Shown here: positions 27,001-31,105 of the stretch, piece after piece
Layout: the number at the start of each line of letters is the position of its first letter
Numbering within the stretch: position 1 is the stretch's first letter
Origin: a virus
Lineage: Duplodnaviria; Heunggongvirae; Uroviricota; Caudoviricetes
DNA length: 48,246 bases
Reading direction: 5' to 3' (one strand)
IMG/VR virus record: IMGVR_UViG_2917849834_000004
Made by a program: the position numbers

Positions 27001-30000
27001 CAGCTTGCGATAGTTCATTAGTGATAAAATCACAGGTTAAAAAACTATTAGTTTTATTATTTTGATGGCATTGATCTGGCGCAAACTCTATCCAAGGGTA
27101 CTCTCTCCAGGCTGGGAATTCATCAGGGAATCCCGCAAGATGATACCCATCTTCATTCGGTGCAACAGATAATCCACGAAATAAATCTCTTCGATAATTT
27201 CTGTTTCTGTGCATCCCCCCCTCTATCGCACCAAAAGTTACTCTATACCATCCAATTATTTGTGATAATGGAACACCACCTAATGCTGCATACTCATTTT
27301 CACTTGGGTATGGGCTGTATGTACCGAGTATGCCGTTCACATCAAATAAATTAGGCGCTGGTGCAATGACATAAATATAATACTCGTTAAAGCTCCCAAG
27401 CATATTTTGCCCGATCAAATGAGCCTGTCTTAATGTCGTTGTTGTAGATACATAACCATCATTATATCTGGTATTCCCTGTTACAGTTCCTCGGGCGTGA
27501 TCATATAAATTAATATTGATTGGCGTACCACGTTCATACGCTTCATCTTGTCCTCGGGGTATTAACCCACCAGAACGTCTCACTTCATCTGGTGATCTGG
27601 AGTCTGCTCTATAAAAATCATTAGCATAAGACGTAGAAGATATGAAAACCAAGGTGACAAACAAAAAACAATTCTATTCATGATACTTATTGTGCGCTCT
27701 GAACTATGTACAATGACATTAACGCATCTGCAAAACAGATAATTGATGCAAATCAATAAATAGAATTAATCAAAAACATAAGACATATATAATTTATCCT
27801 GAGATTATAATTTCAGCTATTACGCAAATTTTTTATTTAATTTTGTAATTTCCAACTAAAGTATAAATATCAACAATTGATTCCTGATACGCGCTCTTTA
27901 ATCCAGCCATATACAAACGACTCGTTAGCCTCCCGTTTCTCTGCCAGCTCCAGGTAACGGTCACCCTGCGTACAGTTCAGTGCGGTCAGCATTACCCGTT
28001 CGCCATCCCTGCCACGATTTTTCAGATATGCCCGTAACGCATTAATAGTTCGTGGGCCGATACGTCCGTCTGCATCCATATCCGGATACAGTTTCCCGCG
28101 CAGGTTGAAAACGTTCAGCCAGCGTTGAAACATTTTTGACGCCACGGTTGGCCCCATGTTGACGCCTGTGTCGCACAGCTCTGCGGCAATATCCGGGGAC
28201 AAATTTGCCACCTGGTCAAAACGTGGGCCGTACCAGTAATCCGCCTCGAGTATTTCCAGCGCCTGCCCGCGCGTCAGGTCACGCATATCGCCCTGATATC
28301 CGTGCGCCCGGGCGACTTTTTCAGTAATGCCCCATTTGGTCGGACCACCTTTATCATCCGGATGGTTGACGTAACCGCCCTCTTTTCCCAGAACTTCGTC
28401 AAAAATTTCATCTTTCGACTTCATTTCAGTACCTTCGTAATGCAAGGATTTTTGAAACATTCCCACGTGCACGTATCACCAGCACGCAGAACAGCAGATT
28501 AAAAAACACCACCAGCCAGTTCGCCGCTAACAGACGACCACACAGATAGCTGAGTGGCGCAAGGGCATAAAGCAGCATCAGCAGCCAAGCCAGCCATGAC
28601 ATCAGCGGTTTATGTCTGGAGTCATGACGACGATAAAAAAAAAGCGTCAGCACGATAACCGTGCATAACGCTACATTCAGCAATCCAGAAAAGTTATCAG
28701 GCATTGCCGCCTCCTCCACCCCGCAGGCGGGAGAACAGGCCGGACACCAATGATGCGATATCCTGCTGGTGGATGAACGACAGAATCTTCACCGACACCA
28801 CTGACACCAGCACTGCACACAATGCGTCGACAGGCGCTCCGTCAAACCCTGTATGCTTTACCAGCCAGGATGCCAGAACCTCTGCACCCAGCACGCCGAT
28901 AATGAACGACACCAGAAAATGCGCCGCCACACGCCAGGCTGAAAGCGCCTGCGGTATCGTTGCCACAAATAACGCCCCGGCGAACGCACCAAACACAATC
29001 CCGAAATCCGTTCCGGTAAACAGCCCGAATACCGTCGCCCCGCCGAGAGCCGCAGCCGTGCCGGAACCGGATAAGGGTTCAGACATACTTTTTCTCCTGT
29101 AAATAAAAAAGGCCACCAGCGGCCCGTAAAAAACAACATCCCATCGAAGGAATCCGCAAATGCCTTTTGTGTGACATAGTCTGATATGAAAAGCGAAGAA
29201 TTAATGTACGGGAATAAGGATTACCAGAAATTCAGATTAACTTTCCTGTTTAAACGAGAAAAATTAATTTATATACTTTTTGCACTTCCCGAGCGGGAGG
29301 TGGAAAGGAAATTCGTTATGTTTCACGGACTTTGTCCAGCGACCTTAATCCGACGGTCGCGTTTTTTTTTGCGTCATATTCATCGTTGACTTACATGGCA
29401 TTGCCACACGGACATTATCAGTGTCCGTGTATTTTTTTGAATTCAACACAAAAAAAACCGCCTAGTGCGGCGGTTGAACAATGCTGAAGATGAATCATTT
29501 TTATTGTAGTGAAATTGAGATGTTGTGGACTTCCCTGAATATCTGACTTTATGCCTGATATTGTGGTTCCAAAAACAACAATGTAAACCACCCTCATACC
29601 GGGGAACATCTCTTTGGTGTTATTTACAACACCGGAATGATGCATTTCCGACTCTCCAAAGAAACACAATATTTCTACCGAAAATACACCATTCCGCTAT
29701 TGTAAAATAACAGCGCAAACCACTGACTAGCCAATTACAAATCGGTGTTCCTGTTTCCTGAGCAATGTTTACTCTTCATATGAGTTCTTGTCGGGGAATA
29801 AAACCACTCACCCGGAAGACAGACGTATAATAACAAGGAATAAAATCACTTCAACTGTAATAATCTGAAAAATGATTCTTGCCACATGAAAACACCCACC
29901 AACCGTCCATTACCACAAATAAAAAAGCCTTCACCGCGTCGCGGTTTTCCATTTTCTTTACTTCTACAATAGCCTTACGGGTTTTCTTTTTGAAAATCCC

Positions 30001-31105
30001 AAACATCGTGAATTTTCCTTTTAGTAGGTGAGCCTCCGCCCGGGGTGACCAGTCCACAGAGAAAGTCACACTGATCATCCCGTAAGCTTACCCCTGAAAG
30101 GTTCTGTGGTTTTTGATCCGCGCCGGGCGTAGCGCAAAGAAATGAAATAAGCCTTATCTGAAATTAAGGTTAATCTGAAGATTTAAACCATTCTAAATGC
30201 TTAGTAGTATAAACATGCCTATTGAAAGAGGCAGATACTAATCCTTCTTCACGGACCTTGTCCCGCGGCTTTAATCCGACAGCCGCGCCCTTTTTCGCCA
30301 ATATAAACCGGATTGAACTCATACAAAAAGCTCACCGAAGCGAGCCTGTTAAAAGTATATTTACCATTACAAGTGGACCGTCACCGGGGACTCGAACCCC
30401 GCACCACAAAACAACAATATTTGTTATGCACTCTTACCCGATGAGTTAGTGACGGCTTTTTGTTCTGCGGGAATCCAGTCTGACGAACAGAACTATCGGA
30501 ACACCTTGCAAAAAAAAGCCAGCCACCAGAGACTGGCTGGCAAATTACAAAGTTTAAATGATTCATCATACAAGCGTCGTTACAGGGGAAACCTGCGGTG
30601 TAGCAAGATACAGAAATGTAAGCAAACTAACAATAAGCAAGCACAGCATATTCGGAATAAGTTATAAATTTAACGATGTAATGCTTATTCAGCGTACAAT
30701 TCTGCAAATTACCGAAAAAAAACCGCCTGTTAAGGCGGTGGTCAAATCAGTAAGTGCTGAAGAGTATTATTATAATATAGGTGAGGTGTCGGGTGCCTCC
30801 CGAAATACCTGACATACCATCAGATACTGTAGTTTCCCCGCTAAACAACCACTTAAACCACCCCCGCACATGGGGCTCACCTCATTTTGTGATGTTAACA
30901 ACATCGGGATAGTGCATAATCAGCCCCTGCCAGGAAACATCAAAAAAATCCCACCAATAATGCACTATTCCGATAGTATCAAAAAACACAGCACCGAAAT
31001 CATAACTGGTCTCCGTTATAATTCGGGAGAGCGATAAAGGATATACGAGACCTTTCCCGCGAAAAAAACGCCAGTGCTGAAAAACCTGTGCCTCATTTGT
31101 TTTGC

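Follow-up and report, generated by a model that had tools for sequence, protein, structure and literature searches.

A repeated hairpin unit antisense to the late operon of an enterotoxin prophage: a candidate small-RNA gene family of Escherichia coli

Small RNAs in prophage late regions

The late regions of prophages in pathogenic Escherichia coli are known to hide regulatory small RNAs (sRNAs), including PasA-D, AgvB, AsxR and StxS. PasA and PasC (EcOnc51/52), carried by prophages of EPEC and EHEC, are Hfq-bound sRNAs that have been validated by Northern blot. Two further phage RNAs serve as reference points. The OOP RNA of lambda is a short, self-contained antisense transcript in a lambdoid operon, which ends at an intrinsic terminator and is complementary to the opposing mRNA. 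The put RNA of HK022 is a pair of neighbouring stem-loops that makes RNA polymerase resist termination; each phage carries it twice, within transcribed leaders that contain terminators.

Here we analysed a 48,246-nt stretch of viral DNA (IMG/VR record IMGVR_UViG_2917849834_000004; hereafter the window) from an LT-II-type enterotoxin prophage, which carries two copies of a hairpin pair antisense to the late operon. Rfam 15 was searched in sensitive mode (E≤1) and no match overlapped either 29280-29380 or 30210-30305, the STnc100, AgvB, AsxR, Esr41 and tRNA models included. An STnc100 match at 30710-30909 scored 28 bits, below the gathering score of 47, and does not overlap the units. The identity of the units with PasA/B/C/D was rejected, as alignment revealed no homology and our covariance model was silent at the PasA, PasB and PasC loci (E≤1). 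Moreover, a literature search using the element sequences and the gene names yodB and serU, which flank a relative in K-12 (see below), returned nothing relevant to the unit. Judged by sequence, the unit is an undescribed candidate sRNA family, distinct from PasA/B/C/D and without a match to any Rfam model.

Anatomy of the unit

A repeat search of the window identified a 51-nt direct repeat in two copies of 80% identity (29322-29372 and 30248-30298), and the pattern GGACNTTGTCCN7TTAATCCGAC (≤3 mismatches) matched twice where 0.02 matches were expected, confirming the two-copy hairpin pair proposed in a first-pass annotation of the sequence. Each copy folds into two consecutive hairpins, one of 4 bp and one of 6-7 bp, the second of which closes the invariant loop TTAATCCGAC. 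The small hairpin (GGAC/GTCC) occupies 29327-29337 in copy 1 and 30253-30263 in copy 2, whilst the large hairpin is formed by GCGACC/GGTCGC at 29339-29360 and by CGCGGCT/AGCCGCG at 30264-30287. The stem differences between the copies are compensated, exactly as that annotation had stated. A second site for the complement of the loop, GTCGGATTAA, was not found in the window. Both copies fold equally well as plus or minus strand. The thermodynamic z-scores are modest (-1.2 to -2.7) and weigh against reading the units as sRNA genes; support therefore comes from comparative data and not from folding energy.

The 49-nt element of the first-pass annotation is real, but it is merely the conserved 3′ domain of a gene-like unit of ~150 nt, whose own candidate promoter, variable 5′ domain and core-genome relative had been overlooked. 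On the plus strand the unit begins with an upstream block and the promoter, continues with a variable 5′ hairpin and a linker, and ends in the small and then the large hairpin, the latter followed by the U-tract. Alignment of 17 contexts and comparison of the three types of unit (copy 1, copy 2 and K-12) delimit the A/T-rich upstream block of copy 1 (AATAAGGATTACCAGAAATTCAGATTAAC...) to 29213-29248; it may be a UP element or a regulator-binding site. The equivalent block of copy 2 lies at 30148-30181 and includes AATTAAGGTTAAT (30162-30174). Among all three types this block is 62-68% identical, in contrast to 42-58% for the flank beyond. Two palindromes, ATAAGACTTAT and ATTAAGGTTAAT, are also present in the upstream part of the unit.

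The block is followed by a sigma-70-like promoter of the geometry TTTAAA-N17-TAnnAT, which is common to copy 1, copy 2 and the K-12 copy. In copy 1 (29249-29277) the -35 element TTTAAA at 29249-29254 is separated by 17 nt from the -10 element TATACT at 29272-29277, scoring 9/12 matches in a promoter scan. The promoter of copy 2 (30182-30210), identified by sequence reading and conservation, has TTTAAA at 30182-30187 and, again after 17 nt, TAGTAT at 30205-30210. The weakness of the -35 element weighs against an sRNA gene.

From folding, the covariance model and a 5′ end predicted from the promoter alone, copy 1 would yield an sRNA of ~87 nt (29284-29370, plus strand), with a 5′ hairpin at 29283-29302 (one U·G pair), a linker at 29303-29326, the large-hairpin loop at 29345-29354 and a U-tract at 29362-29370. 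Folding and the covariance model give copy 2 a predicted sRNA of ~79 nt (30217-30295, plus strand), made up of a 5′ hairpin at 30217-30232, a pyrimidine-rich linker at 30233-30252, the large-hairpin loop at 30271-30280 and a short U-tract at 30291-30295. The covariance model scored 72.2 bits (E 7.8e-15) for copy 1 and 99 bits (E 3.5e-21) for copy 2.

Both copies present a G+C-rich hairpin directly 5′ of a U-tract, as expected of a terminator. That of copy 1 has a 6-bp GC-rich stem followed by one G and nine T; that of copy 2 is weaker, with a 7-bp stem followed by CCC and five T. Neither appears in the output of our terminator scan because the 10-nt loop exceeds its 3-8 nt limit. The U-tract is short or interrupted in both copy 2 and the commonest variant, a further point against an sRNA gene. 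A second terminator-like hairpin was detected by the scan at 29406-29437 on the plus strand, 36 nt downstream of copy 1 (ACACGGAC...GTCCGTGT then ATTTTTTT; 11 pairs, loop of 3). A hairpin of covarying sequence occupies this position in most related contexts, and it may back up the first terminator or mark where a longer isoform ends.

Conservation, genomic position and the core-genome relative

The full unit is carried by 116 viral contigs and by 297/5426 complete E. coli genomes, while phage database records containing it number just two, in both of which it is unannotated. The sequence TTTAAAC is invariant in 17/17 distinct contexts, where the -10 element is likewise conserved, and in 106/109 occurrences a spacing of 90-92 nt separates the block AATTAAGGTYRAT-N7-TTTAAAC from the small hairpin downstream of it. 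Across 46 distinct variants the three-helix structure leaves 93.4% of cells paired, compared with 40-52% in controls with slid partners. Positions 12:21, 61:76, 62:75 and 63:74 show compensatory changes, and 0/500 shuffles reached the observed covariation score. Moreover, G·U cells in helix 1 number 30 when it is read as the plus strand and 6 when it is read as the minus strand, an asymmetry that favours the plus strand as the functional one. The covariation which the first-pass annotation had anticipated among database copies is thus present, and together with the G·U asymmetry these recurrent changes support its proposal of selection on a plus-strand RNA structure. No unit was found outside Escherichia as far as tested, and therefore the covariation rests on few independent events. 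A looser pattern of the 3′ domain, searched against IMG/VR, returned among the matches listed core-type copies at prophage edges and 3-4 chance ones, with no new types or genera.

The late gene adjoining copy 1 is a holin gene (Phage_holin_8; Pfam PF16931, E 1.4e-22) at 28697-29086 on the minus strand, whose ATG at 29086 and the predicted 5′ end of the divergent copy 1 RNA are ~198 nt apart. Copy 2 adjoins a remnant of a TerB-family gene, identified by BLASTP at 29854-30006 on the same strand, with its ATG at 30006, ~211 nt from the predicted start of the copy 2 RNA. The first 27 residues alone of this remnant are conserved, and 25/27 match the N-terminus of the intact TerB-family protein that sits at the same position in E. 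coli RM10740. Between the holin and a tRNA-like sequence no ORF is longer than 83 aa, in line with the earlier remark that the region lacks long ORFs. We surveyed 80 related loci for position relative to the holin. All 52 covariance-model matches near a related holin (52/52) are antisense to the holin gene, as had been read for the window, and the proximal copy lies at a fixed distance of ~197 nt upstream of the holin ATG. Loci without the unit diverge precisely at its boundary, so that it behaves as a cassette that is either present or absent. The upstream neighbour gene in the prophages is on the opposite strand to the unit, and therefore any plus-strand RNA there needs a promoter of its own.

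The third type lies between yodB and serU in 5418/5426 complete E. coli genomes, K-12 included, with no late operon opposite. This core-genome member has kept the promoter and the 3′ domain, the 17-nt promoter spacing being preserved by a shifted -10 element, TATGAT. The 3′ domain is 83-91% identical among the three types, in contrast to 45-57% for the 5′ domain and flanks. Rfam gave no credible match at the K-12 copy at E≤10, no unit was found beside YodB homologues in Salmonella and Citrobacter, and no copy was present in the nmpC/IpeX region of the K-12 prophage DLP12. Published Term-seq data for K-12 contain an 'orphan' RNA 3′ end at 2,043,181 (+), present at modest read counts (~1900-2200) in stationary phase (LB, OD 2.0) and in M63 minimal medium and absent in exponential LB (PMC7815308). 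This position is the last T of the U-tract that follows the large hairpin. RNA thus terminates in vivo at the homologous hairpin, which supports the reading of the downstream T-runs in the window as terminators. The Term-seq data prove termination and not function, and the 3′ end could derive from read-through of yodB, which counts against an sRNA gene.

Interpretation and comparison with known systems

We consider it probable, at roughly two chances in three, that each copy is the conserved 3′ domain of a self-contained plus-strand sRNA gene, carried by a moron-like cassette antisense to the late operon. The cassette would be inserted ~200 nt upstream of a late gene, namely the holin gene for copy 1 and the TerB remnant for copy 2. 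From the weak sigma-70-type promoter, transcription would run as far as the large hairpin and U-tract and yield RNAs of ~80-90 nt in which a variable 5′ stem-loop and linker precede an almost invariant 35-nt 3′ domain. We infer that this promoter fires and that the predicted RNA is a regulatory sRNA. By analogy with PasA and PasC, it would be a base-pairing sRNA associated with a chaperone (Hfq or ProQ) and made in the lysogen, whose variable 5′ domain would recognise targets, while termination, stability and partner binding would fall to the 3′ domain. When duplexes were predicted with 336 translation-initiation regions from the prophage, no target stood out over those of shuffled sRNAs, which weighs against this reading. 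The exact complementarity of the RNA to the leader of the late mRNA could additionally lead to cleavage of, or interference with, that leader after induction.

That complementarity might instead be the main job of the RNA, i.e. cis-antisense control of the late operon that tunes lysis timing or silences leaky expression in the lysogen, either by pairing with the leader of the holin (or TerB) message or through interference by convergent transcription. The invariably antisense orientation and the fixed spacing to the holin ATG suit such a role, as do the mirror hairpins on the two strands, whose 10-nt loops are fully complementary. Moreover, the loop begins with UUAA and so agrees with YUNR, a U-turn motif characteristic of recognition loops in antisense RNAs. 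However, the core-genome member retains promoter and 3′ domain with no opposing late operon, an invariant loop sequence is not required of an RNA with a purely cis-antisense function, and the overlap stops >100 nt before the holin ribosome-binding site, making a direct block of translation impossible. We therefore regard this as doubtful for the primary role, although it is compatible with an sRNA gene and differs just in which role comes first. It is less likely still that the hairpins are mere terminators or insulators against stray plus-strand transcription upstream of the lysis genes, with no functional RNA. Each copy does have a hairpin and T-run, a second plus-strand terminator follows copy 1, terminator-like sites crowd the region (19 compared with 3.2 expected), and the K-12 data go no further than termination. 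Yet an invariant 10-nt loop, an invariant small hairpin and a promoter at a fixed distance are all superfluous for a terminator, and the whole unit moves as a single cassette.

Nor is it at all probable that the minus strand is the functional one, with the hairpins working in the late mRNA itself, for example in its processing or, like put, in modifying RNA polymerase. Folding is equally good on that strand and the element is invariably found within the late leader, with terminators upstream of it, but the G·U count, the restriction of the T-run to the plus strand and a K-12 homologue with a plus-strand 3′ end and no late operon all point the other way, and a Q-like antiterminator is already encoded upstream. 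The same strand evidence (G·U count, U-tract and K-12 3′ end) disfavours a put-type antitermination RNA, whose hairpins function on the sense strand of the operon. We give marginally less credence to a 32-residue minus-strand peptide (MKNNKYWPPSGDMFILLSFKNGLNPQINLNFR and variants) starting directly after the small hairpin. Of the copies, 89/125 (71%), and of the distinct sequences 34/51, retain the open frame and share its stop codon, which counts against an sRNA gene, but we rejected it as a coding gene for want of a coding signature. Variable sites are spread 15/11/15 over the codon positions, and codon variants are 14 synonymous to 37 non-synonymous (synonymous fraction 0.27; random expectation 0.18). 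Truncation affects 29% of copies, among them the two in the window (20 aa and 4 aa); ATG, GTG and GCG all occur at the start codon, which is lacking at that place in the K-12 type; and no Shine-Dalgarno sequence is evident. A type I toxin-antitoxin system was also rejected, with no conserved hydrophobic ORF opposite and, by inspection, no hydrophobic helix in the 32-codon ORF.

If the units are sRNA genes, they would add an undescribed family in the slot of PasA and PasC, on an LT-II-type enterotoxin prophage, and a clean case of sRNA genes moving between phage and core genome with one domain fixed and the other swapped. Since the single-copy relative in nearly every E. coli has, in K-12, a published and unassigned 3′ end exactly at the predicted terminator, the hypothesis is cheap to test in the best-studied bacterium. 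A more specific proposal, to which we assign a low likelihood, is that the 35-nt 3′ domain (loop UUAAUC(C/U)GAC) is a docking module for one protein or RNA partner, common to the near-universal, unannotated core RNA and to its prophage paralogues with their different 5′ domains. Were this true, prophage copies would feed into a host RNA circuit, compete with it or mimic it, and in this way tie lysogeny by toxin-carrying phages to host regulation.

Of the known systems, lambda OOP lies in the early/immunity region opposite cII, whereas the present units lie in the late leader, with no sequence similarity to OOP seen and no Rfam match in the region. HK022 put acts on the sense strand of early operons, while the units here point to the antisense strand. 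STnc100 (RF02076) and PasD are likewise sRNAs of prophage late regions, but they occupy another locus and the opposite strand. Two sub-threshold STnc100-like modules are present on the minus strand of the window, each converging on one unit, an arrangement that resembles the published PasD-PasA neighbourhood. A MAFFT alignment with PasA and PasC (genes and promoters of E2348/69) showed promoters and RNA bodies to be unrelated, and the Pas RNAs are reported to be largely restricted to pathogenic lineages, whereas the present family has a near-universal core copy. However, slot and orientation are alike, both being intergenic, antisense to the late operon and ~200 nt upstream of the holin/lysozyme cassette of lambdoid prophages, with PasA ~214 nt upstream of its holin compared with ~197 nt here. 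PasA and PasC are often near a TerB gene, just as a TerB remnant adjoins copy 2. They are ~80-85 nt long with a large-loop terminator hairpin, similar to the RNAs predicted here. Lastly, published variants of PasA have a common 3′ end and a divergent 5′ 40 nt, the same mosaic pattern as in the family described here.

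The repeat and its late-operon setting

The window is a lambdoid prophage whose late genes are read from the minus strand. In late-operon order, a DUF1133/Q-like antiterminator gene (31591-32133) is followed by three tRNA or tRNA-like genes, a 2.4 kb non-coding leader, a Phage_holin_8 holin (28700-29086, minus strand) and a GH108 endolysin. Just downstream of this lysis cassette is a heat-labile enterotoxin A-chain gene (26897-27664, minus strand; Pfam Enterotoxin_a, E 4.6e-119) whose product ends in KDEL. This gene makes the window look like a toxin prophage of the LT-II type, with a layout like that of phage SerU-LTIIb (KU052038). 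The leader region is rich in terminator-like sites, a terminator scan giving 19 against 3.2 expected. Intrinsic-terminator-like sites form a chain on the minus strand from the Q-like gene to the holin, within 28900-31700 (at approximately 31517, 30739, 30541, 30347, 29475 and 29125). One terminator-like site lies ~20 nt ahead of the holin ribosome-binding site and therefore holin expression should be strictly dependent on antitermination. At 30374-30455 (minus strand), ARAGORN predicts a 'tRNA-Tyr' of 82 nt whose anticodon, ATA, is odd; this stretch has no match to the Rfam tRNA model, only a weak tmRNA match, and probably represents a phage tRNA-like sequence that is degenerate or unusual.

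Inside the leader, a repeat search identified a direct repeat of 80% identity at 29322-29372 (copy 1) and 30248-30298 (copy 2). With the large stem left free, the hairpin pattern occurs twice in the window versus 0.02 expected occurrences. Both copies fold into a GGAC/GTCC hairpin and a second one, whose 6-7-bp stem closes the loop TTAATCCGAC; where the stems of the two copies differ, the changes are compensated. The first-pass annotation had described two such paired-hairpin copies, and the repeat, folds and compensated stems are all reproduced here.

Anatomy, structure and strand of the unit

Alignment of 17 distinct contexts, in plus-strand orientation, revealed a conserved stretch of ~150 nt around the hairpins, hereafter the unit. 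It comprises an A/T-rich block, an invariant TTTAAAC, a hexamer (TAGTAT/TAATAT/TATACT) 17 nt after TTTAAA, a variable hairpin, a linker that is pyrimidine-rich for the most part, the small hairpin, and the large hairpin followed by a T-run. As read from the alignment, this would be the anatomy of a small-RNA gene. A scan anchored on the upstream block alone recovered essentially the same loci as the hairpin pattern, which lies 90-92 nt downstream of the block in 106/109 cases; of the remaining three, one is a contig end and two are copies carrying the loop variant TTAATCCGAT. The putative promoters are TTTAAA-N17-TATACT for copy 1 (29249-29277, plus strand; also a promoter-scan match) and TTTAAA-N17-TAGTAT for copy 2 (30182-30210, plus strand), with predicted small RNAs at 29284-29370 and 30217-30295, both on the plus strand. 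The neighbouring upstream gene is on the opposite strand, so the prophage copies would need a nearby promoter. Upstream of the -35 are short palindromes, ATAAGACTTAT in most types with ATTAAGGTTAAT beside it (window 29213-29248 and 30148-30181; 3025-3059 of L130, the extracted K-12 locus), which could be a candidate regulator-binding site.

Covariation was assessed in 46 distinct 94-nt variants of the unit. In the three-helix structure 93.4% of cells are paired, versus 40-52% after sliding the partners 1-3 columns out of register. Compensatory changes are seen at 12:21 (C-G to U-A, 19 sequences), 61:76 (G-C to A-U, 4), 62:75 (C-G to U-A, 12) and 63:74 (C-G to U-A, 11), although the variants are closely related and these counts amount to a handful of independent events. 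None of 500 shuffles matched the observed pairing, covariation score or number of cells changed on both sides, and RNAalifold recovered helices 2 and 3 independently. In 18/46 sequences the large stem has a mismatch at its apical pair, which is therefore dispensable, while the small hairpin is invariant and hence uninformative on structure either way. In helix 1 the plus strand has 30 G·U cells and the minus strand 6, which together with the plus-strand T-run favours a plus-strand RNA. The earlier interpretation of a selected plus-strand RNA structure, antisense to the late operon, therefore holds.

Distribution and a core-genome member

The hairpin pattern was found on 116 contigs of IMG/VR; of the GTDB species representatives, one (E. 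ruysiae) has it. The full-length unit is present in 297/5426 complete E. coli genomes, being annotated in none, as well as in phages vB_EcoS-683R6 and SerU-LTIIb, the latter a published LT-II prophage. Read in the direction of the late operon, it precedes a holin or TerB-family gene in E. coli genomes. Copy 2 in the window precedes a TerB-family remnant (29854-30006, minus strand) in which no more than the first 27 codons survive, with 93% identity to the N-terminus of the intact gene in relatives; apparently a 'unit plus TerB' cassette was shortened here, leaving two units 926 nt apart. One IMG/VR contig (loci L086/L131) has the same two-copy arrangement. Among 80 IMG/VR loci with the same holin, 48 carry the unit, all 52 model matches are antisense to the holin, and the 5′ end of the proximal copy is always ~197 nt upstream of the holin ATG. 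Unit-less loci share the holin-proximal sequence up to the unit boundary and diverge beyond it; the unit is therefore a discrete, moron-like cassette.

A 45-nt partial match beside yodB is a third, diverged type of the whole unit. This core type has the same upstream block, a 17-nt promoter spacing restored via a shifted -10 (TATGAT), an unrelated 5′ domain, an identical small hairpin and TTAATCTGAC as the loop of its large hairpin, and is single-copy in 5418/5426 complete E. coli genomes. The K-12 MG1655 copy is found between yodB and serU (NC_000913.3, ~2,043,020-2,043,185, plus strand; L130 3021-3185), where there is no annotation and no Rfam model match. The covariance model of the unit (R1), trained on prophage copies only, detects it at 55 bits (E ~1e-10). 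Term-seq tables list an 'orphan' RNA 3′ end at 2,043,181 on the plus strand, flanked by ...GGACTTTGTCCCGCGGCTTTAATCTGACGGCCGCGTTCCTTTTTT|GACTC, with 2241 reads in LB at OD 2.0 and 1864 in M63 glucose, and not listed for LB at OD 0.4 (Adams et al. 2021, PMC7815308). This position is the last T of the U-tract of the K-12 copy, and therefore the large hairpin of this family terminates plus-strand transcripts in vivo. The condition dependence of the 3′ end would fit a regulated promoter. However, the RNA may possibly arise by read-through from yodB, 283 nt upstream, and thus the 3′ end does not prove a start at the predicted promoter. In the minimum-energy fold of the K-12 RNA (L130 3093-3182), AAAGCUGCG of the 5′ domain pairs with the large hairpin's 5′ arm, much as an anti-terminator would; this alternative hangs on a K-12 base (GCTGCG versus GCTGGG in the other core copies read) and is thus probably not general.

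Over the 35-nt 3′ domain, identity among the two window copies and the K-12 copy is 83-91%, most differences being compensated stem changes, compared to 52-72% for the promoter and upstream block and 42-58%, roughly background, for the 5′ domain and outer flanks. This mosaic points to selection on the promoter and on the 3′-domain sequence, including the loop, with an exchangeable 5′ domain. The unit was not found beside YodB homologues in Salmonella and Citrobacter, and the family appears confined to Escherichia. The nearest Citrobacter YodB homologue (76% identity; L227-L229, from Citrobacter portucalensis and related contigs) is encoded within a prophage, where it sits between the lysis cassette and HNH/terminase on the opposite strand; this suggests that the E. 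coli yodB-to-serU stretch may itself be an old prophage remnant.

Alternative readings and known RNAs

In related loci such as L004 and L006, a minus-strand ORF of 32 codons (MKNNKYWPPSGDMFILLSFKNGLNPQINLNFR and variants) overlaps the promoter and the body of the RNA; it is open in 89/125 copies (71%). However, it carries no coding signature: variable sites fall 15/11/15 by codon position with no third-position bias, non-synonymous codon variants outnumber synonymous ones (37 versus 14), the window copies are cut to 20 and 4 codons (29267-29326 and 30241-30252, minus strand), and K-12 lacks a start codon. The strand evidence, among it the plus-strand G·U bias and T-run, speaks against a put-like or processing function of the late strand. 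Were the hairpins terminators only, the conservation of promoter and loop would be left unexplained, as a plain terminator needs no such selection. A primarily cis-antisense role is possible for the prophage copies, yet it cannot account for the core copy, which stands alone; nor would an RNA acting purely as a cis-antisense require its loop to be invariant. The evidence favours a family of small-RNA genes, hitherto undescribed and with prophage and core-genome members, whose conserved 3′ domain is the repeated element; this proposal is easily testable in K-12.

Given that the window copies are known from sequence, that no outstanding predicted target was found within the prophage and that the family seems restricted to Escherichia, we infer small-RNA function by analogy. 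The closest functional analogues are the Pas sRNAs of EPEC, of which PasA and PasC are 79-85 nt, Hfq-dependent and antisense beside the holin/lysozyme operon, near TerB (Pearl Mizrahi 2021, PMC8550237; Zhu, Shabalina and Storz 2026 preprint). PasA lies ~214 nt upstream of its own holin, compared to ~197 nt for the proximal unit. We rejected homology to PasA/PasC, as neither alignment nor covariance model shows any; the unit therefore represents a different family that occupies the same slot. Two mutually homologous STnc100-like modules on the minus strand (~29435-29660 and ~30700-30925) each converge on one unit and end in a strong terminator, one giving a sub-threshold match to Rfam STnc100 (28.2 bits versus a gathering score of 47, E 0.003). 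Similarity to PasD2 of EPEC is weak, but the convergent layout resembles the published PasD-PasA arrangement.
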